The notes below the pieces were generated by a model. It was not told where the DNA came from. It made no database searches and saw only the letters and a program-made list of their open reading frames with translations. Positions 14,757 through 21,242 of a stretch of DNA of 64,000 nt are shown one piece after another. Positions within the stretch are counted from its first letter, which is position 1; each line of letters starts with the position of its first letter. Both the position numbers and the translations under genes were made by a program. The stretch comes from an uncultured Bacillales bacterium (GTDB lineage: Bacteria; Bacillota_I; Bacilli_A; RFN20; CAG-288): positions 155,331 through 219,330 of the forward strand of contig CAJMBK010000001.1 in assembly GCA_905211645.1 (NCBI GenBank), written 5' to 3'.

Positions 14757-16937
14757 TTAGTCCTCAGAATATACAATTTGGAAATATGGGTCGTAGTCAT
14801 GACGTGATTCTTCATGCTTGTCAGGATTTGTTTGAAGTAAGACAAGAGCAGAGCTATTAATCTTTCTTGGTGTAGCAACTTTATCGAATTTAACGTAGCA
14901 GAAATTACCATCTGTAGATAGAACTTTACCTTGACCAAGAAGTCTTGAAAGAACGATGTCTCCTTCTTGGAACAAATTTAATGCCATCGTTTTATCACCA
15001 ATTTTTACAATAGGTGCTGAAACTTGTGGATATGTGACAATTTTATCGAAAACTTCTGAAATAAATGGTGAAGCATCATTGCAGGTGTGGTTATTCGCAT
15101 CATGGTATGAAGAATAATAGAAAGATAAAGTATCTTGTGCTCTTGTGATGGTGACAAAAGCTAATCTTCTTTCTTCCTCTTGTGCTTCATCGGTTACTGC
15201 GTGAACGGATGGGAATAATTTATTGTTAAATTCATAAACAATAACGTGTCTGTATTCCAAACCTTTTGATGAGTGCGAAGTGATGAGTTTGACAGATTCC
15301 TTTTTCTCATCGATGTAGAAATCGTGGATAATTGCGATGGAATTTAAGAAAGTTTGCAAATCTTTAACTTCTTCAGCATGTTCTTTTTCCTGTTGAGTGA
15401 CAGAAGATAATAAGAAATAGTAGTTAGTTAATCTTTCTTCGTTGTTGATATCTCTTAAATCTGCTTCGTAACCTGATTCTTTAAAAGCCATATTCAAAAG
15501 TTCACTAACCTTCTTTGTTGGTATGGAAAGTTTGATCTTTTTGATAAGTTCGATAAAGACCTGTATGGTAATTGAACGGAATTGTCTATCATTTCTTAAT
15601 GAATCAAGAGCTTGAAATTCGGAAATATTGTACTTTTTAGCGTATTCACTAAGCATTTCCATACGTTTTTCACCGATTCCAAGGGAACGGTTTGAAAAAA
15701 TGTATTTTAAAGCGATGTTATCATCGTAAAGAGCAACTCTTAAATAGGATAAAACCAATTTAATTTCGACTCTATCGTAGAATGAAGTTCCTTTAACAAC
15801 TTTGTAAGGAATTCCCCACTTAACTAAACTTGGCTCAATCTGTTGAGAAAGTTTGTTGGAGCGATATAAAATAGCAACGTCGTTGTAATTCTTCTTTTCG
15901 TCAACGTAGGATTTAATTTCTTCAACAATCTTTTTATTTTCTTCTTCGATATCTTTACAGATAAAAAGTTTAACTGGTGTACCAAGAGTACCACGTTTAG
16001 ATTTTAAATTCTTCTTGATTCTGTTTGAGTTATTCTTAATAAGTTTATTTGCAACATCGATAATTTCTTTTCCTGAACGGTAGTTGACATTAAGTGTCAT
16101 CGTCTGTAAATCTTTAACGTTATTTTCAAGGTGAACTAAGAGATTTACATTGCTTCCGTTGAAGGAGTAGATTGCTTGATCAGGGTCACCAACAACGAAT
16201 AAGTTGTTGTAATATTCACTCAAACATTTGATGATTGTGAATTGAGTGTCAGTGACATCCTGGAATTCATCAACCATGATGTATGTATAAAGCTTCGCAG
16301 TTTCATTTCTAACTTTAGAGTTAGTTTCCAAGATAAAAATCGTGAAAAGAATTAAATCATCAAAAGTTAAGCATTGATTTTCCCTTTGATAATCTAAAAG
16401 AATTTGAATGTATCTTTCAGGAAAATCGATATATGTTGGTTTATTTTTAGCAGTGATGTATGTGATGTAATCACTTCTATTATTTTTCTTAAAACTAGAT
16501 ATTTTTTTCATCATCTCTGCTAAGGAGATGTTTCTTGCTTGGTCATTATTAAGTGATCTTCTAATTTTTCTTAATAATGAATGATAGTCATTTTCATCAA
16601 CGATTGAAAATCCTGGATTGAATCTTAAAGTGAAAATATTATTTTTTAAAAACTTTGCACAGAAAGAGTGAATGGTGCAGATATTTGGGAAGGTATCGTT
16701 GGTATTTAAAAGATAACGAACACGTTTAGCCATTTCTTGAGCGGCTTTATTTGTGTAAGTGATACATAAAATATCCTTTGGATCGATACCACCAAAGTTG
16801 ACAAGATATGCAAAACGGTATGTTAAAGTTCTAGTTTTACCAGTTCCAGCACCGGCTAAAACCCTGATATTGCCTTCAGTTGTTTTGCAAATTTCTTGTT
16901 GCTCGGCATTTAAATCGTTTAAGAATGAATTTTCCAT
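14757..16937 (-). CDS. UvrD/Rep-family ATP-dependent DNA helicase (second UvrD-like paralog, distinct from pcrA)
   Basis: Walker A AGAGTGKTRTLTYR. UvrD helicase motifs throughout. About 120 aa C-terminal extension with no recognisable motif. Confidence 0.8.
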   Translation of the reverse strand: MENSFLNDLNAEQQEICKTTEGNIRVLAGAGTGKTRTLTYRFAYLVNFGGIDPKDILCITYTNKAAQEMAKRVRYLLNTNDTFPNICTIHSFCAKFLKNNIFTLRFNPGFSIVDENDYHSLLRKIRRSLNNDQARNISLAEMMKKISSFKKNNRSDYITYITAKNKPTYIDFPERYIQILLDYQRENQCLTFDDLILFTIFILETNSKVRNETAKLYTYIMVDEFQDVTDTQFTIIKCLSEYYNNLFVVGDPDQAIYSFNGSNVNLLVHLENNVKDLQTMTLNVNYRSGKEIIDVANKLIKNNSNRIKKNLKSKRGTLGTPVKLFICKDIEEENKKIVEEIKSYVDEKKNYNDVAILYRSNKLSQQIEPSLVKWGIPYKVVKGTSFYDRVEIKLVLSYLRVALYDDNIALKYIFSNRSLGIGEKRMEMLSEYAKKYNISEFQALDSLRNDRQFRSITIQVFIELIKKIKLSIPTKKVSELLNMAFKESGYEADLRDINNEERLTNYYFLLSSVTQQEKEHAEEVKDLQTFLNSIAIIHDFYIDEKKESVKLITSHSSKGLEYRHVIVYEFNNKLFPSVHAVTDEAQEEERRLAFVTITRAQDTLSFYYSSYHDANNHTCNDASPFISEVFDKIVTYPQVSAPIVKIGDKTMALNLFQEGDIVLSRLLGQGKVLSTDGNFCYVKFDKVATPRKINSSALVLLQTNPDKHEESRHDYDPYFQIVYSED

Positions 16938-17036
16938 AGCCTTATTATTTTACTATTTTTGGTGGAGATAAATGAGAGGAAAAAGAAGGTAGAAAAGATG
17001 AGATTTATTAACTAAATTATATTTTTACAAAAGAAA

Positions 17037-17062
17037 AAGTGCCTTTCTATCGGCACTTAAAT
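17037..17062 (-). terminator. Intrinsic terminator (minus strand) closing copy 1 of the repeated DUF4926 module
   Basis: Hairpin AGTGCC...GGCACT followed on the minus strand by TTTTTCTTTT. Confidence 0.45.
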
Positions 17063-17070
17063 GTCTATTA

Positions 17071-17290
17071 TAATGCCTACATACTTCGCTTTTGATACAT
17101 TGCACACCCTTACAACGGCAAGCAACGGCGCAAATTTAATGTAGCCAAATTATGGATTATTATGCCTAATAAGTTCTATCTCATTTAACTCATATGTAAC
17201 TACATCGATTGGATAATGTTTTGGCTAGGCTGACCACTACTATAAAAAACAATACATACGCTGTGTGGCGATTGAATAGCCTTCGTTCTC
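17071..17290. repeat. Repeat A copy 1 (about 220 bp, roughly 85-90% identical to 19052-19270)
   Basis: Direct alignment read from the sequence (TAATGCCTACATACTTCGCTTTTGATACAT...CTTCGTTCT). Contains decayed 3' coding remnants of a DUF4926-like gene. Confidence 0.8.
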
Positions 17291-17329
17291 AACTAGCGTT
17301 TTCACTAAATCATATTCTTCAAAATGCAT
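17150..17329 (-). pseudogene. Decayed DUF4926-like gene (copy 1): intact RBS + ATG, then frameshift/premature stop
   Basis: Minus-strand translation from ATG 17329 gives MHFEEYDLVKTLVENEGYS...*. This resembles the N-termini of the intact paralogs (MKIQERDIVRTLVNKEGF / MEKLKEFDSVITLVNKNNI). A further out-of-frame piece YPIDVVTYELNEIELIRHNNP* resembles the C-terminus YPVDVVTYKFDELEVIERTNE. Confidence 0.5.
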
Positions 17330-17344
17330 ATTTTATCTCCTTTT

Positions 17345-17514
17345 ATTTTAAATAATTTGTTATTAATCTTGGAATTGTTTTACCTTTATCAATTTGATAA
17401 ACAACGACAACTTTTAAAAAAAATAATCTATTTATCTATCACTAAAAACAAATAATGTTTGAACATCCCTAGATAAGTTCTAAGGATGTATCAAACATGT
17501 TGTTCTCATATGGC
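17345..17514. repeat. Repeat B copy 1 (about 170 bp, roughly 85% identical to 19827-19988, the region immediately 3' of tRNA-Ser)
   Basis: Alignment ...CTTGGAATTGTTTT..TTTGATAAACAACGACAACTTTTAAAAA...GTATCAAACATGTTGTTCTCATATGGC. Both copies end in the same TGGC, which in copy 2 is the tRNA CCA end. Confidence 0.8.
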
Positions 17515-17553
17515 AATAAATACCAATTGTGATGCACTTGCGCCCCCCACTAC

Positions 17554-18609
17554 TTACCATGTTTTTATTAAATCATACAAATAAGAATTTTTATAAATTA
17601 TTTCTTTGCCAACTTTTTCCTCAATTAAAATTCCAATTTTAGATAATGAATGTAAATACTTTGATGCCGTATTTCTACTAATATTAAGGTTATTTCTTAA
17701 ATACTCATTTTTTGTATAAAAATCATAAAACAAATAATCAATTAATTCTTGTGAATAAATTTTTGGTAGTTTTTCTATAACAATATTCTTTGCATTGTTT
17801 ATACAGTTAAGCATCTTATTAATAAAATTAATTGTGTATTGACTCATTTCATTTACTGCTTTTAGCATGTAAATAATATATTTTTTATAATTGCTTAAGT
17901 CTTTTTGCATCATATTTAAAAGATCATAATATTCCTTTTTATGTGCATTAATATATTTACTTAGATATAAGATTGGTATGTTTATTTTATGTTCCAAAAC
18001 TAAATACAAAATGTTTAATATTCTACCTACTCTTCCATTACCATCATGAAATGGATGGATTGATTCAAATTGAAAATGAATCAATCCCATTTTAATTAAA
18101 GGATCAGCATTTTCTAATTCAGGATAATTAATATATTTTTCTAAATTGGATAAATATTCCCTTATTTTTGATTCATTTTGTGGTGGAGTATGTAATATCT
18201 CATTAGTTTTTGTATTTAATATAACTGTGCCAGGAATTTTTCTAATGTCTCCAACACTAGGTTCAATTATTCTATGTATTTCAACTAACATATTTGTTGA
18301 GATGAATCCATTATCATTTAATAGTTTAAATCCATGTAAAATAGCTTGCCTATAATTAACTACTTCTTTTGATGAGGCATCTTTTGTTTTTAAAGTTATT
18401 TCTTTAAAAATACGGTCGTAAGTCGTAACTATATTTTCAATCTCACTAGATTCTTTAGCTTCACCTAAAATGACAGCATTTAAAATAATATTTGGGTTTG
18501 GCAAAGCTTTTACTAATCCATTAAGCTCACCAATTTTATTATTAGCATTAGATAAAGCTTTTAAGATATCGATATCATCTAGATTTAAATCAAATGGTAA
18601 TTTGTGCAT
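17554..18609 (-). CDS. Fic-family protein (Fido domain, probable AMP-transferase) with an N-terminal inhibitory motif
   Basis: Canonical Fic motif HPFHDGNGRVGRIL. Upstream SxxxEN-type inhibitory helix motif (SSEIEN) in the same polypeptide, i.e. class II arrangement. Very AT-rich codon usage. Confidence 0.9.
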   Translation of the reverse strand: MHKLPFDLNLDDIDILKALSNANNKIGELNGLVKALPNPNIILNAVILGEAKESSEIENIVTTYDRIFKEITLKTKDASSKEVVNYRQAILHGFKLLNDNGFISTNMLVEIHRIIEPSVGDIRKIPGTVILNTKTNEILHTPPQNESKIREYLSNLEKYINYPELENADPLIKMGLIHFQFESIHPFHDGNGRVGRILNILYLVLEHKINIPILYLSKYINAHKKEYYDLLNMMQKDLSNYKKYIIYMLKAVNEMSQYTINFINKMLNCINNAKNIVIEKLPKIYSQELIDYLFYDFYTKNEYLRNNLNISRNTASKYLHSLSKIGILIEEKVGKEIIYKNSYLYDLIKTW

Positions 18610-18775
18610 ATTATAGCCTCGTGCTTAAATTTTATCATTTTTTGTGCACATTATCAATTCGTGCTTAAATAAGATAAAAAATAAGTAGTTTCAAGAATTA
18701 GTATTGATAATATAGTAAAAAATAAATGTATTAAAATTAAAAACTATAATCTTAATAGAGGAAAATATATAAAAA

Positions 18776-18865
18776 ATCATAATATTCTTTTTAATTTGCA
18801 TTAATATGTTTGCTTAGATATAAGATTGGTATGTTTATTTTATGTTCCAAAACTATATACAAAAA
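18776..18865 (-). pseudogene. About 90 bp fragment of a Fic gene (roughly 90% identical to 17923-18010, inside the intact Fic CDS) in the intergenic AT-rich region
   Basis: Direct sequence alignment. The minus-strand translation ILYLSKHINAN* matches Fic ILYLSKYINAHKKEYYD and then stops. Confidence 0.6.
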
Positions 18866-18994
18866 TTTAAAAAGTGTTACAATCTTAGAATTTTTTGAAA
18901 TTCTAACACTTTTTATTATTTATTATGTTTAGTTATTATTTATAAAAGTTTTCGCACAGTAAATTTCATCATAATAAGAATATTTAAATAATAA

Positions 18995-19047
18995 TCACCA
19001 TTTTGCTATAAAAAAAGATTGATACCTAATTGTGTCAATCTTTGGTT
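18995..19047 (-). terminator. Intrinsic terminator (minus strand) closing copy 2 of the DUF4926 module
   Basis: Hairpin AAGATTGACACA..GGTATCAATCTT followed by TTTTTTT on the minus strand. Confidence 0.5.
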
Positions 19048-19051
19048 ACTC

Positions 19052-19270
19052 TAATGCCTACATACTTCGCTTTTGATACATTTCACACACTTACAATGGC
19101 AAGCAACGGCGCAAATTTAATGTAGCCAAATTATGGATTATTATGTTTAATAAGTTCTATCTCATTTAACTTATATGAAAGTACATTAATTGGATAATGT
19201 TTTGGCTCGACTAAACCACTACTAAAAAAATACATACCCTGTGTGACGATTGGATAGTCTTCGTTCTGAA
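19052..19270. repeat. Repeat A copy 2
   Basis: See repeat A copy 1. Confidence 0.8.
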
Positions 19271-19274
19271 ACAT
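19130..19274 (-). pseudogene. Decayed DUF4926-like gene remnant (copy 2, third gene of the array)
   Basis: MFQNEDYPIVTQGMYFF* and the out-of-frame piece YPINVLSYKLNEIELIKHNNP* are both homologous to the remnant in copy 1 and to the intact paralogs. Confidence 0.45.
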
Positions 19275-19320
19275 TATTTTACAAAAACGTACTCTCTAAA
19301 ATTTTAGTAGTCGATAAACT

Positions 19321-19521
19321 TCATTCATTTGTTCGTTCGATAACTTCTAATTCATCAAATTTATAGGTAACAACATCAACTGGATAATTCGTTTCATCCC
19401 AAATTTCAACTTCGCAAACAGGAAAACCTGTATAAATCGAAACTACAACGCCTTCGCTTCCTTTCGCAAATCCTTCTTTATTTACTAATGTTCTTACAAT
19501 GTCTCTTTCTTGAATCTTCAT
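19321..19521 (-). CDS. Small DUF4926-like protein (66 aa)
   Basis: MKIQERDIVRTLVNKEGFAKGSEGVVVSIYTG...EVEIWDETNYPVDVVTYKFDELEVI matches my memory of the DUF4926 pattern (D-V-V-x-L-x-x-d-l-P-e-x-G-L-k-x-G-x-x-G-T-V-V, then Y-E-V-E-F). Paralog of 19610-19810. Confidence 0.5.
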   Translation of the reverse strand: MKIQERDIVRTLVNKEGFAKGSEGVVVSIYTGFPVCEVEIWDETNYPVDVVTYKFDELEVIERTNE

Positions 19522-19609
19522 CTTATTAATTTTTCTTATTAGTATAGTTAAATATCAATATAGGTGTATTTATACTTAGTGCTTTCTTCATTTATCTCCA
19601 CTTTTGCGA

Positions 19610-19810
19610 TTAATCTTTGACATCATACTTTTGAATTTCATTTTCATCGTAGTCATAAACACCTATAGTATTATAGTTTTTATCAAATAATTCACATGTA
19701 TAAGCATTAAAGTCAGTATAAACGTGAACAATACAACCAATTGTTCCTTTTGGTATATTGTTTTTATTAACTAATGTGATTACTGAATCAAATTCTTTTA
19801 GTTTTTCCAT
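19610..19810 (-). CDS. Small DUF4926-like protein (66 aa)
   Basis: MEKLKEFDSVITLVNKNNIPKGTIGCIVHVYTD...TCELFDKNYNTIGVYDYDENEI. Strong RBS (AGGAGA) 8 nt upstream of the ATG. Confidence 0.5.
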   Translation of the reverse strand: MEKLKEFDSVITLVNKNNIPKGTIGCIVHVYTDFNAYTCELFDKNYNTIGVYDYDENEIQKYDVKD

Positions 19811-19826
19811 TTTTTATAATCTCCTA

Positions 19827-19988
19827 TTTTAAATAATTCGTTATTATTCTTGGAATTGTTTTGTCTTTATCTTTTTGATAAACAACGACAACTTTTAAAA
19901 ATGTCCTATTTCTCTCTAAAACAAAAAATGTTTGTACACCCATAGAATAAGTTCTAAGAATGTATCAAACATGTTGTTCTCATATGGC
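19827..19988. repeat. Repeat B copy 2 (leader of the DUF4926 genes, abutting the tRNA-Ser 3' end)
   Basis: See repeat B copy 1. Confidence 0.8.
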
Positions 19989-20075
19989 GGAGTAAGAGAG
20001 GTTCGAACTCTCGCACACCTTACGGTGTCTACGTACTTAGCAGGCACGCCTCTTCACCAACTTGAGTATTACTCC
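19985..20075 (-). tRNA. tRNA-Ser (anticodon GCT), 91 nt, CCA encoded
   Basis: Reverse complement GGAGTAATACTCAAGTTGGTGAAGAGGCGTGCCTGCTAAGTACGTAGACACCGTAAGGTGTGCGAGAGTTCGAACCTCTCTTACTCCGCCA. 7-bp acceptor stem, D arm, anticodon loop CTGCTAA, long variable arm, T arm GTTCGAACC. Confidence 0.85.
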
Positions 20076-20222
20076 AAAATTTGCTTTTTTATTATCTAAA
20101 ATATCGGTTTTTAAGTCAATGAATAATATTTGGCAGTTAGTGTAAATGTGTCATGTTTCTAATATTATCTAAGAAAGAAATTGATACTAAAAATATTAAA
20201 ATAAAAGAAGAGAGGTTTAATC

Positions 20223-21242
20223 ATGATCTACCCAAGATTTCTTAAAAAAGGTGATAAAGTTGCAGTAACTGCACCAAGTGCTGGTATCGTTGATCCAATT
20301 AAAATCAACACTTTTAAAAATGCTAAAAAAGAACTTAAGAATCGTTATGATTTAGATGTTTTCTTCTCTGAAAACGTCTTTAGAGATGATGGAACTGGCC
20401 GTTCATCATCCGGGTTTGAAAGAGGCTATCAATTCAATGAATTAGTTAGCTTAAAATTCCCTTGGATTATTGGAGCGACCGGTGGTGACTTTTTAGTTGA
20501 AATGTTAGATTATGTAGATTATGCAAATTTTGCAGAAAATCCATGCTGGGTTCAAGGTTATTCCGATTTAACTTCACTTCTTTATTCAATTACGACAATC
20601 TGCGATGTTGCAACAATTTATGGAACTAATTTTTCAATCTTTGGAATGGAAGAATATGGTCAACCTCATTTTGATAATATCAAACTTCTTTTTGGTGAAA
20701 CAAAAGAATTTCACAACTACGAAAAATATGAGGATGGTTTCCAAGAGAAAGTAACCGGTCTTGAATACTTCAATATGACTGAGAAAACAGTATGGAAAAA
20801 TGCACATAACGAAAATAAAGTCACTTTCTCAGGAAGACTTTTAGGTGGTTGCACAGAAATTATTTTTGCTTTAATTGGTACTCCATATGAAAGAACAAAA
20901 GAATTCTGCGAGAAGTATAAAAATGATGGAATCATCTTCTACTTTGAAACCTTTGCTTCAAACGATAACGATATGTACCTCCATCTCTGGCAGATGAAGA
21001 AAGCAGGATTTTTCAAATACTGCAAAGGTATCATGTTTGGTCGTCCACTCTTTTATAATTCAATGAGAAATGAATCCTATCAGGATGTTTGTTTATCGGC
21101 ACTTGATTCACTTAACATCCCAATTATCTTCGATGTGGATATCGGACACAAAGCACCACAACTTCCAATCGTAAATGGTGCTTATGCCACCGTACATTCT
21201 GAGGATGGAAACGGTTATATTAAATACGAGTTTTTAAAGTAA
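20223..21242 (+). CDS. LD-carboxypeptidase (peptidase S66; LdcA/MccF-like)
   Basis: N-terminal LKKGDKVAVTAPS and the catalytic-Ser motif GYSDLTSLL typical of S66 enzymes. Confidence 0.8.
   Translation: MIYPRFLKKGDKVAVTAPSAGIVDPIKINTFKNAKKELKNRYDLDVFFSENVFRDDGTGRSSSGFERGYQFNELVSLKFPWIIGATGGDFLVEMLDYVDYANFAENPCWVQGYSDLTSLLYSITTICDVATIYGTNFSIFGMEEYGQPHFDNIKLLFGETKEFHNYEKYEDGFQEKVTGLEYFNMTEKTVWKNAHNENKVTFSGRLLGGCTEIIFALIGTPYERTKEFCEKYKNDGIIFYFETFASNDNDMYLHLWQMKKAGFFKYCKGIMFGRPLFYNSMRNESYQDVCLSALDSLNIPIIFDVDIGHKAPQLPIVNGAYATVHSEDGNGYIKYEFLK

Follow-up and report, generated by a model that had tools for sequence, protein, structure and literature searches.

A SoFic gene and probable remnants of DUF6883/DUF4926 cassettes at a strain-variable tRNA-Ser locus

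SoFic has been described as a single-gene anti-phage system that acts by abortive infection, and in E. coli a 47-aa gene located 3′ of SoFic relieves the toxicity of EcSofic (PMC12249575); thus, a link between SoFic and small proteins could not be dismissed a priori. A preprint has also proposed DUF6883 (BECR-Tox3) and DUF4926 as a toxin-immunity organisation. DUF6883 is a predicted BECR-type RNase toxin, and the toxin and immunity roles used here rest on this preprint and on gene neighbourhoods. In the present study we analysed a locus within a 64-kb stretch of DNA (the window), whose host is an uncultured, low-GC gut Bacillota. A first-pass annotation had described two copies of a module (leader B, DUF4926 genes, tail A) flanking a Fic gene, and had suggested an undescribed accessory module in which a Fic effector is accompanied by a family of small partner proteins. 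We propose, with a probability of about 80%, that the locus is a hotspot containing a working SoFic and two 5′-truncated DUF6883/DUF4926 toxin-immunity cassettes, which would now amount to debris plus orphan immunity genes. The features are as follows.

14757-16937, minus strand: UvrD-like helicase, flank; first gene of the core rbgA-rnhB-dprA-topA-trmFO cluster
16960-16979, minus strand: possible direct repeat, degenerate, of the 17 nt that end tRNA-Ser (CCTCTCATTTATCTCCACCA vs CCTCTCTTACTCCGCCA); lies at the border of the locus distal to the tRNA
17037-17058, minus strand: intrinsic terminator-like hairpin closing copy 1; passes the terminator scan
17066-17152, minus strand: tail A1
17153-17329, minus strand: pseudogene c, copy 1; start codon kept, premature stop, ∼23-nt deletion
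17343-17411, minus strand: B1 toxin stub, last 22 DUF6883 codons and stop
17412-17514, minus strand: B1 head, with the same GCCA, hairpin and T-run as B2, 39 nt after the SoFic stop
17554-18609, minus strand: SoFic, class II Fic AMP-transferase, intact, 351 aa (PADLOC SoFic E 1e-97, full length)
18610-18669, minus strand: SoFic promoter region (TTGATA-17-TAAAAT with TG); start region repeated in tandem (40 nt, D7)
18765-18871, minus strand: SoFic fragment, 107 nt, residues 198-233, in-frame stop (90% to 17912-18018)
19009-19048, minus strand: AT-rich terminator-like hairpin and T-run (inverted repeat I24)
19047-19133, minus strand: tail A2, cassette 3′ end, 85 nt, conserved; terminates in ...AGTATGTAGGCA
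19134-19295, minus strand: pseudogene c, copy 2 (coding part of A2); without N-terminus, same ∼23-nt internal deletion
19321-19521, minus strand: gene b, intact, 66 aa, DUF4926-like, putative orphan immunity gene, weak RBS (Pfam DUF4926 E 9e-4, 19.1 bits)
19522-19609, minus strand: a-b spacer, apparently inherited from the parent cassette (homologous spacer in contig L136)
19610-19810, minus strand: gene a, intact, 66 aa, DUF4926-like, putative orphan immunity gene (Pfam DUF4926 E 2e-5, 24.3 bits)
19824-19892, minus strand: B2 toxin stub, last 22 codons and stop of a DUF6883 gene; closely followed by the native RBS of gene a
19893-19988, minus strand: B2 head, terminator-like; GCCA of the tRNA, 12-14 bp hairpin (ATGTTTGATACA...TGTACAAACAT), T-run
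19985-20075, minus strand: tRNA-Ser(GCT), one border of the variable locus (ARAGORN; Rfam tRNA 53.3 bits)
20223-21242, plus strand: LD-carboxypeptidase, flank, core gene

The interval 16938-19984 was found to be more AT-rich than its flanks (GC 0.257 vs 0.332 and 0.334), and its ORF list contained no integrase or recombinase, both in agreement with the first-pass annotation. To fetch the equivalent site from other strains, the LD-carboxypeptidase was used as bait. Among same-species contigs with an identical flanking LD-carboxypeptidase, at least three different site contents were observed. The tRNA-Ser(GCT) sequence was identical across all strain contigs. One allele (L001/L002) carries a 79-aa repeat protein, HI_0787_N, PD-T4-3, an IS30-like gene, SoFic, B, intact c, HTH-GNAT and RhuM; this allele, that of L004-L007 and that of L108-L111 are all unlike one another. 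No truly empty site was observed among the fetched same-species contigs. The presence/absence variation that had been called for is provided by these alleles, and the idea of an accessory locus beside tRNA-Ser with duplication and decay is borne out. The interval is a small, strain-variable defence/toxin-antitoxin hotspot between tRNA-Ser(GCT) and the core helicase operon.

The direct repeats A and B were recovered within a few bases of their first description. Repeat A (17066-17292 and 19047-19270) is ∼90% identical between copies, with 92% for 17066-17231 vs 19047-19212 and 87% for 17246-17292 vs 19224-19270; repeat B (17327-17514 and 19808-19988) is 87-98% identical, with 87% for 17327-17420 vs 19808-19901 and 98% for 17473-17514 vs 19947-19988. 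Because the copies are 87-98% and not 100% identical, an assembly duplication is rejected. The 64-kb window contains exactly two occurrences of a 22-mer of B (0 expected by chance), and likewise two of the A tail. The hairpins at 17058-17037 and 19009-19048 agree with the terminators that had been placed at the end of each copy; the latter has 17-nt arms with 82% complementarity and fails the GC rule of the scan. It lies in a segment, 18765-19060, shared with strains L001/L003 (96% to L001 4964-5259), and the junction of tail A2 with 19060-18765 was found in no independent contig.

Judged by sequence, repeat B is a head joined to a toxin stub, and repeat A a third DUF4926 paralogue (c) followed by the cassette tail. 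The designation of B as a leader was thus abandoned in favour of a terminator-like head joined to 22 terminal DUF6883 codons, since tblastn, the toxin HMM and DNA collinearity all identify its 3′ ∼70 nt as DUF6883 coding end. In tblastn, four intact DUF6883 proteins matched only B1 and B2, with 77% over 22 aa for the B1 stub, whose DNA is 91% identical to the toxin 3′ end in L131. In a six-frame search of the whole window, the toxin HMM gave significant matches only at B1 (17435-17346, E 1.5e-9, the best) and B2 (19964-19827, E 8e-8). From 19892 onward, the DNA is collinear with the intact cassette of L136/L138 (88% to L138); the B2 stub alone gave no Pfam match. The B2 head showed no similarity to the equivalent toxin DNA and no detectable toxin homology, but resembled, in the same register, the trailer native to tRNA-Ser in other strains. 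It overlaps the last 4 nt of tRNA-Ser (GCCA), which places the start of copy 2 at the CCA end as first annotated. Outside the window, the genome could still contain an intact DUF6883 gene.

Relatives of the 66-aa genes (65-95% identical) lie directly downstream of intact DUF6883 genes in seven other gut-metagenome contexts, and DUF6883 was found directly upstream of relatives of a, b or c in L092-L099, L100-L105, L114-L116, L119-L122, L131-L135 and L136-L138. P0055, 95% identical to a, directly follows an intact 147-aa DUF6883 gene, and the same position after DUF6883 is held by P0056 (79% identical to a) and by the b relatives P0012 (77%), P0011 (80%) and P0019 (65%). The order in intact relatives is (HTH, M78 peptidase,) DUF4417, DUF6883 toxin, one to three DUF4926 genes and the 85-nt tail. 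In L136/L137, DUF4417, DUF6883 (147 aa), a (95% identical), x, pseudo-b/c and the tail are collinear with 19892-19054. In L124, b and pseudo-c come directly after a longer remnant of the toxin (Pfam DUF6883 E 1e-12), and 19549-19109 of the window is collinear with this contig from the point where the remnant ends; the last ∼28 nt of the a-b spacer (19522-19549) may be a very short toxin stub, to which the toxin HMM gave weak matches (E 2 and 4.5).

The two intact 66-aa genes and decayed third gene expected in copy 2 were located at 19610-19810, 19321-19521 and 19134-19295. Their assignment to DUF4926 was right in spirit, but a and b score lower (24.3 and 19.1) than the Pfam gathering cut-off of 29.1; from their sequences, they represent a divergent DUF4926 subfamily. 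For 32 of 38 family members, PF16277 was the only match. The AlphaFold model of b (pLDDT 94) is an SH3/KOW-like barrel. We infer that DUF4926 proteins are small SH3-like barrels that would bind and block the DUF6883 RNase, and that a and b would be toxin-less ‘orphan’ immunity genes. In the promoter scan neither gene had a recognisable promoter on its strand; hence, their transcription would need read-through past the head hairpin. Only decayed remnants were present in copy 1, as anticipated, with c in two pieces (17243-17332 and 17153-17224). Pseudogene c of copy 2 was recognised by the immunity HMM (E 5e-6) and aligned to intact c of other strains. An intact 66-aa c adjoins the helicase in L108-L111, the same position as the copy 1 pseudogene, and the ∼23-nt deletion is common to A1, A2 and L124. 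Intact c has diverged less than its flanks (5/201 vs 21/180 differences, p = 4e-4); dN/dS among toxin-less c copies is ∼1, on only 5-10 substitutions, so that continued function is no more than a possibility.

Between the copies, a full Fic gene with a Fic fragment upstream was present as described. It contains Fic_N, Fic and SoFic-like_C domains (Pfam), the catalytic motif HPFHDGNGRVGR at residues 185-196 and the inhibitory motif SSEIEN at 54-59, and it matches the PDB structures of SoFic (E 1e-71) and EcSofic 9VJC (E 1.6e-68); by these comparisons the gene is assigned to SoFic. Its promoter region travels with it, and homology to L139 covers exactly 18669-17556. The fragment is a relic of a second Fic copy, present in other strains too.

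Our preferred reading may be extended to a history of the locus, in which SoFic with its own promoter would be the working unit and the remainder two wrecked cassettes. In both, all cassette sequence upstream of the last 22 toxin codons is missing, replaced by a hairpin and T-run head like the tRNA-Ser trailer. Copy 1 (B1, pseudo-c, A1) occupies the position of intact c in other strains, and copy 2 (B2, a, b, pseudo-c, A2) is a longer version set against the tRNA. Since both A repeats share the same deletion, the dead gene would have been copied or converted between the two sites. Genes a and b could protect against re-acquired cognate toxins, or simply have not decayed yet.

An alternative is that SoFic has the DUF4926-like proteins as its antidotes or partners, comparable to AS1, a small protein encoded downstream of SoFic in E. 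coli; the locus would then be a toxin-antitoxin system based on SoFic, with antitoxin paralogues to spare. The E. coli precedent favours it, as does a c-type DUF4926 gene ∼230 nt downstream of SoFic in every strain of the species seen, and the one strain with a dead c has a and b, which is readable as compensation. However, a DUF6883 stub with stop codon and native RBS separates SoFic from c, the seven contexts above are independent pairings with DUF6883, and b-type and c-type genes also occur with no nearby Fic (L107, L124). SoFic is of class II, with its own inhibitory helix. Moreover, SoFic with its 60-nt promoter is found 98% identical in an unrelated context (10 contigs, no DUF4926 or B), the homology ending exactly at the stop codon, and no DUF4926 ORF was found at five plasmid SoFic loci. 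The suggested Fic/DUF4926 partnership is therefore not supported, and we consider this explanation very improbable. The chance that repeat B is a cis-regulatory leader or small RNA (riboswitch, attenuator or sRNA) for the DUF4926 genes is slighter still, and this idea is already largely refuted: B precedes two different DUF4926 genes in conserved form, starts with a strong hairpin and T-run and folds better than shuffled sequence (z = -2.7), but its 3′ half is DUF6883 coding debris, recent common origin explains its conservation, it is less conserved than the gene after it, and no Rfam family was above threshold (best rli23, 22 bits vs gathering score 45). The B1 head is the only terminator-like structure 3′ of SoFic.

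Two further explanations concern movement of the sequences. Insertion of the truncated unit (head, stub, DUF4926 gene, tail) twice as a discrete mobile cassette of an unrecognised recombination system, rather than local duplication, appears unlikely to us. Its 5′ end ((GC)CATATGAGAAC) is identical in three upstream contexts and its 3′ end in five downstream contexts, 17 nt in from either end there is a 10-nt inverted repeat (TTTGATACAT / ATGTATCAAA), and sharp-bordered, block-like behaviour is likewise shown by SoFic and further parts of the locus. The 3′ end, however, is also that of the intact parental cassette, and hence may mark the edge of inherited homology. Recombinase, target-site duplication and true terminal inverted repeat are all absent, no attC-like R′/R″ core was seen on inspection of the sequence, the tail folds no better than shuffled sequence (z = -1.4) with no covariation, and searches with the B 22-mer matched a single additional metagenome contig and no viral ones. 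Somewhat more plausible, though still doubtful, is that a classical tRNA-integrated island lost its integrase and survives as this interval, with att sites at the tRNA 3′ end and 16960-16979. This would concern the route of acquisition and is compatible with the cassette reading. The locus is low in GC and directly adjoins the tRNA 3′ end, other strains have RhuM and an IS30-like gene, and the internal GCCA and trailer-like terminator of the B head would be expected from insertions at the CCA end that displaced older trailers inward. The degenerate 17-nt repeat just before the helicase has a local shuffle p of 0.007 and is suggestive only, with three equal-or-better matches elsewhere in the window. 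Against such an island stand the lack of an integrase in any fetched allele, the failure to observe an empty site and the sharing of just 4-5 nt at the internal junction.

The locus is ordinary in kind and of modest interest. Its repeats are best regarded as gene wreckage in a strain-variable hotspot and not as the undescribed module first suggested, because the Fic gene corresponds to the known SoFic, the natural partner of the small proteins is DUF6883, and the DUF6883/DUF4926 pairing was already put forward in the preprint.

Every gene in the interval 16938-20222 lies on the minus strand, in the same transcription sense as tRNA-Ser(GCT), and a Fic gene stands between copy 1 (B1, pseudo-c, A1) and copy 2 (B2, a, b, pseudo-c, A2) of a repeated arrangement, in which a and b are intact 66-aa genes and c is a third paralogue.

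17066-17292, repeat A, copy 1 (A1)
17327-17514, repeat B, copy 1 (B1)
17554-18609, minus strand, Fic gene
19047-19270, repeat A, copy 2 (A2)
19321-19521, minus strand, small gene b
19610-19810, minus strand, small gene a
19808-19988, repeat B, copy 2 (B2)
19985-20075, minus strand, tRNA-Ser(GCT)

Blocks matched between the copies by the repeat finder.
17066-17231 with 19047-19212, 92%
17246-17292 with 19224-19270, 87%
17327-17420 with 19808-19901, 87%
17473-17514 with 19947-19988, 98%

The repeats and the Fic fragment described in the first-pass annotation were thus recovered, the latter as a 107-nt piece of the Fic gene (17912-18018) that matches 18765-18871 at 90%. Within the 64 kb, a 22-mer of B and the 85-nt tail that ends A are both found exactly twice, where zero occurrences are expected by chance. 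The AT-richness reported earlier also holds (GC 0.257 over 16938-19984 and 0.33 on either flank), as does the lack of an integrase or recombinase: no such ORF was found at 16938-20222, nor in those portions of the strain alleles that were fetched, where an IS30-like HTH_38 gene in L001 (a contig of another strain) is the only recombinase-type candidate. A perfect 14-nt inverted repeat, GTGGAGATAAATGA, joins the helicase upstream region (16962-16975) to the a-b spacer (19588-19601); both copies resemble contexts of a ribosome-binding site plus ATG, and a chance match is possible.

On the tRNA side the locus is bordered by an LD-carboxypeptidase gene, followed by hup, dnaD, nth and recU, and on the other side by a UvrD-like helicase gene (14757-16937), the first gene of a core rbgA-rnhB-dprA-topA-trmFO cluster. 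The helicase is at most 38% identical to its relatives (best 80 matches; one genome for each of 185,579 species), and at this identity the search gave no usable synteny in related species. A canonical PcrA-LigA pair lies a few kb off in the same genome (L001 13121-17020). The helicase was also considered as GajB of a Gabija system and rejected, because its matches to GajB profiles are such as any UvrD-like helicase would give, no GajA partner is present, and the gene opens a core operon present in all strains.

The small genes had been called DUF4926 (PF16277), a call that stands for the family as a whole and falls short for a and b themselves. Scores of 24.3 bits for a, 19.1 for b and 20.0 for the intact c of L001 are all below the gathering threshold of 29.1, whereas PF16277 is matched at E ≤ 0.01 (best 6e-8) by 32 of the 38 relatives in the alignment (the three homology searches yielded 24, 30 and 6), several relatives carry it as a precomputed assignment, and the only other match among the 38 is a single weak SH3_12. 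An AlphaFold model predicts b to be a five-stranded SH3/KOW/Tudor-like barrel (pLDDT 94); no solved DUF4926 structure was found for fold comparison. The decisive evidence on what the small genes are is genomic context, since relatives lie immediately downstream of a 127-154-aa DUF6883 gene and often overlap it; an intact DUF6883 gene directly upstream was found in seven contexts.

Relatives of the small proteins located downstream of DUF6883 (identity; loci).
P0012, 77% to b; L092-L099
P0019, 65% to b; L100-L105
P0011, 80% to b; L119-L122
P0034, 68% to c; L114-L116
P0056, 79% to a; L131-L135
P0055, 95% to a; L136-L138

DUF6883 has been proposed in silico to be a BECR-fold RNase toxin (BECR-Tox3) with DUF4926 as its immunity protein (bioRxiv 10.64898/2026.08.28.747851); a PDB search gave no relative of the toxin. 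The DUF6883 gene is usually preceded by DUF4417 (with a PHROG nuclease-like match) and often by an HTH_3/Peptidase_M78 pair, and L136 has two intact DUF4926 genes and a dead one behind a single intact toxin gene. A recurrent operon of several gut genomes reads HTH_3, Peptidase_M78, DUF4417, DUF6883 and one to three divergent DUF4926 genes (L092:3784-6201, L114:1896-4574, L131:1788-4195, L136:115-2056). In one gut genome (L119:4645-6044) the DUF6883/DUF4926 pair adjoins a RelB/Doc toxin-antitoxin pair, Doc being a short Fic-fold protein; this is an example of toxin-antitoxin modules clustering, and its 'Fic' neighbour is unrelated to SoFic. A phage origin of the cassette was rejected: neither toxin nor immunity protein has PHROG matches, a pattern-limited scan of IMG/VR gave no relatives, and tblastn gave no match in 50,697 phage records. 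The B 22-mer was likewise absent from viral contigs.

Remains of the same toxin account for part of repeat B, which had been read as a leader. In tblastn of four intact DUF6883 proteins against the window, only B1 (17411-17346, up to 77% over 22 residues) and B2 (19922-19821) were matched, and a profile built from the toxins and run against the six-frame translation of the whole window gave these two as the sole significant matches (E 1.5e-9 and 8e-8, respectively). Moreover, window 19892-19054 is collinear with the intact L136 cassette, whose order is DUF4417, DUF6883, a, another paralogue, a pseudogene of b/c type and the tail; within the toxin gene, DNA homology sets in at the 22nd-last codon. 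The remaining ~95 nt of B, its head, consist of GCCA, a 12-14-bp hairpin and a T-run, and resemble the native tRNA-Ser trailer/terminator of other strains in the same register. The toxin matches, the collinearity and the trailer-like head together identify B, at the level of sequence, as a terminator-like head fused to a DUF6883 stub, after which comes the ribosome-binding site native to the immunity gene. The head has no similarity to the equivalent part of the four toxin genes and was rejected as toxin coding sequence; a known leader, riboswitch or sRNA family was rejected as well, since Rfam passes only the tRNA and its best hit in B is rli23, with 22.3 bits against a gathering threshold of 45. 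Within the 64-kb window DUF6883 is present only as 22-codon stubs, with no intact copy, and with the toxin so reduced the immunity genes are orphans.

Repeat A, judged by alignment, is the third paralogue c plus the 85-nt tail. Aligned with the intact gene of other strains, both window copies of c share a ~23-nt deletion and further lesions, and the copy 2 version also lacks its N-terminus. The same dead version follows b in the unrelated contig L124, where a much longer DUF6883 remnant (Pfam E 1e-12) stands ahead of b; its presence at the window sites and in L124 indicates that a dead gene was copied or converted between sites. The tail has the same end, ...AGTATGTAGGCA, in five contexts that differ downstream, one of them being the intact L136 cassette. 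As a structured element it was rejected (z = -1.4 against shuffled sequences, not significant, and no covariation), and as an attC-like integron cassette end also, having no GTTRRRY/RYYYAAC pair (R''/R' cores).

Are the orphan genes still of use to their hosts? Among toxin-less copies, intact c differs at 5 of 201 positions and the B flank at 21 of 180 (p = 4e-4), which suggests retention of c by selection or gene conversion. The dN/dS of these copies is about 1, on very few changes and hence not decisive; b differs from its L124 copy by three synonymous changes and one non-synonymous change. Against function count the following: B has no visible promoter on the strand of the genes, the ribosome-binding site of b is weak, and the head hairpin should block read-through from the tRNA or from SoFic. 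We read the small genes as what is left of small chromosomal cassettes for toxin and immunity: some are retained for a while as orphan immunity genes, and others, such as c here, are decaying.

The Fic gene is an intact SoFic, predicted to be a single-gene abortive-infection anti-phage defence acting by AMPylation, as described for other SoFic proteins. Its match to PADLOC SoFic PDLC03963 is full-length (E 1e-97, residues 3-348 against profile 13-358 of 361), a PDB SoFic is matched at E 1e-71 over residues 11-341 and E. coli Sofic 9VJC at E 1.6e-68, and the Pfam domains are Fic_N (E 6.5e-23), Fic and SoFic-like_C (E 9e-21). The catalytic motif HPFHDGNGRVGR at residues 185-196 (pattern HxFx(D/E)GNGRxxR) is intact, and SSEIEN at 54-59 fits the class II N-terminal inhibitory motif (S/T)xxxE(G/N). 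The gene has a good promoter (TTGATA-17-TAAAAT with TG), and no terminator-like structure other than the B1 head follows it. The start-codon region is duplicated in a 40-nt tandem direct repeat (18585-18664, 70% identical), so that the promoter region contains a copy of the first codons of the gene.

The arrangement invites the reading given in the first-pass annotation, a Fic effector with small partner proteins, and such a partner has precedent: in E. coli H397 a 47-aa gene downstream of SoFic (AS1) relieves its toxicity (2025 paper, PMC12249575). For the window five findings argue against this reading, which we judge to be wrong. In ten contigs a 98%-identical SoFic that includes 60 nt of promoter sequence (window 18669-17556) occupies the unrelated context L139, after a group II intron and 20 nt upstream of a 280-aa gene; homology to the window stops at the SoFic stop codon, and neither B nor DUF4926 lies beside the gene in any of the ten. 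Five diverse plasmid SoFic loci also have no DUF4926-like ORF in any frame. Conversely, genes of the c and b types are found where Fic is absent (L107, L124), and in the window strain c is dead beside an intact SoFic. Moreover, the 90%-identity cluster of SoFic has 260 member sequences, compared with 13-25 for core proteins of the same genome, so SoFic travels on its own and is spread much wider than the host lineage. No AS1-like 47-aa gene was identified with the window SoFic, AS1 being known here by description rather than by sequence, and the E. coli fic locus reached via a Salmonella plasmid SoFic has no annotated or identifiable 47-aa gene. Nor does 'undescribed module' describe the locus, whose components are of known kinds: SoFic, a DUF6883/DUF4926 cassette, orphan immunity genes and a tRNA-linked hotspot.

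The surroundings of the L139 SoFic look like another defence-island setting. There (1-760, 1831-2673) the gene comes just after a group II intron maturase and the intron 3' end, and downstream follow the 280-aa protein, of no known family, bPH_2, a 1009-aa AAA_11/AAA_12 helicase and a KAP/ATPase_2 gene.

Orthologous sites were fetched by exact look-up of the LD-carboxypeptidase protein, which gave 17 gut-metagenome contigs, many of them broken at the locus. Behind an identical LD-carboxypeptidase and the same tRNA-Ser at least three different alleles were found, including the following two.

L001/L002: 79-aa repeat protein, HI_0787_N, PD-T4-3, IS30-like, Fic, B, intact 66-aa gene, HTH-GNAT, RhuM
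L004-L007: non-coding segment of ~430 nt, then Fic, B, intact 66-aa gene

Content thus varies between relatives, with no empty site among the strain contigs fetched, and the accessory island with duplication and decay at a tRNA that had been proposed is right, given the low GC, the strain-variable content and the pseudogenes. PD-T4-3 of L001/L002 is a GIY-YIG protein (PADLOC E 1.6e-54); this alternative content (L001:5291-7342) has PD-T4-3 preceded by the HI_0787_N protein and the 79-aa protein, which is made of SGNKLYKIG-type repeats, and the IS30-like gene (HTH_38) of L001 is inserted between a SoFic fragment and SoFic. The ~430-nt segment (L004:1688-2140, with equivalents in L005-L007) extends from the tRNA-Ser trailer (...TTTTTTTGTGYCAAAA) to the SoFic promoter. 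Three very different alleles exist of its initial ~80 nt, and one of them is found again in the unrelated L139 context, immediately ahead of the 98%-identical SoFic (L139:560-695); three AAAAGTTTWTTGTGC-like direct repeats come after the ~80 nt. Exact look-ups of the helicase and RbgA proteins returned one short contig only, broken inside repeats, and the helicase side of other strains was reached via look-up of the c-type protein. In L108-L111 an intact 66-aa c gene stands directly in front of the helicase, as in most strains, which makes window copy 1 the common orthologous position, with its small gene dead in the window strain.

Three contexts share one 5' end of the truncated unit: that following the tRNA, that 39 nt beyond SoFic, and L107. 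Its 3' end is the same in five contexts. Both window B copies begin with GCCA, the last four bases of tRNA-Ser, and just before the helicase 16960-16979 matches 15 of the last 17 tRNA nucleotides with three inserted bases, a match with local p = 0.007 to which better ones exist elsewhere in the window. Shared ends, GCCA starts and the degenerate tRNA copy would fit repeated insertion at the tRNA-Ser CCA end, by which older trailers would be displaced inward, combined with recombination that exchanged blocks between strains; a recombinase was not seen. The same unit (trailer-like head, toxin stub, DUF4926 gene or genes, 85-nt tail) could instead be a discrete mobile cassette that has fixed ends and no recombinase, repeatedly inserted, including exactly at the CCA end, by an unrecognised mechanism, with its DUF4926 genes selected as a portable anti-toxin repertoire; we regard this as improbable. 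In a variant of it, one DUF4926 paralogue may have been co-opted to restrain the neighbouring SoFic.

Under the reading of leftovers from toxin-immunity cassettes, the main value of the analysis is that a misleading pattern is cleared up: what appeared to be a duplicated module for a Fic effector is SoFic amid the debris of another cassette. The locus documents a very compact, strain-variable defence hotspot, made of blocks with sharp borders, at tRNA-Ser in an uncultured gut bacterium. It also provides natural instances of DUF4926 genes without a toxin, and of arrays in which a single DUF6883 gene is followed by several immunity genes, which support the barely documented idea of DUF6883/DUF4926 as a toxin-immunity pair, and the stronger conservation of orphan c than of its flanks hints that orphan immunity genes can be retained.

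Compared with the SoFic system (PADLOC/DefenseFinder; 3EQX, 9VJC), the window gene shares the full-length match, the three-domain architecture and the catalytic and SxxxEN inhibitory motifs, and it lies among other defence genes in strain variants, an anti-phage role here being predicted; however, it is only ~37-45% identical to characterised proteobacterial SoFic. The SoFic-AS1 pair of E. coli H397 (PMC12249575) likewise has a small ORF downstream of SoFic on the same strand, but the small ORF of the window belongs to the cassette of another toxin, has a terminator-like hairpin and a toxin stub between it and SoFic, and is a pseudogene in the window strain; the other SoFic loci compared lack the association. 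As in the DUF6883/DUF4926 pairs (bioRxiv 10.64898/2026.08.28.747851), the small genes are a DUF4926 subfamily with close relatives directly downstream of DUF6883, and DUF6883 remnants precede them in the window; in contrast, the window toxin is cut to 22 codons, relatives show two or three divergent DUF4926 genes behind one toxin, and no MuF or phage link was found for this subfamily. With tRNA-linked defence islands and hotspots the locus shares a tRNA as one border, low GC, nearby IS and RhuM genes, and different defence genes (SoFic, PD-T4-3) at the same site across strains, but it is very small (~3 kb here), with no integrase seen and a doubtful att-like repeat only. Orphan toxin-tip/immunity arrays (orphan cdiA-CT/cdiI, Rhs) are variable loci with tandem divergent immunity genes, 5'-truncated toxin pieces and pseudogenes. 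The window locus is alike in its variability, its pseudogenes and its tandem divergent immunity genes, each after a 5'-truncated toxin piece; it differs in having no large delivery protein (CdiA, Rhs, MuF) upstream and stubs of only ~22 codons, and its parental cassettes rather resemble small cytoplasmic toxin-antitoxin-like operons with HTH, M78 and DUF4417 genes.
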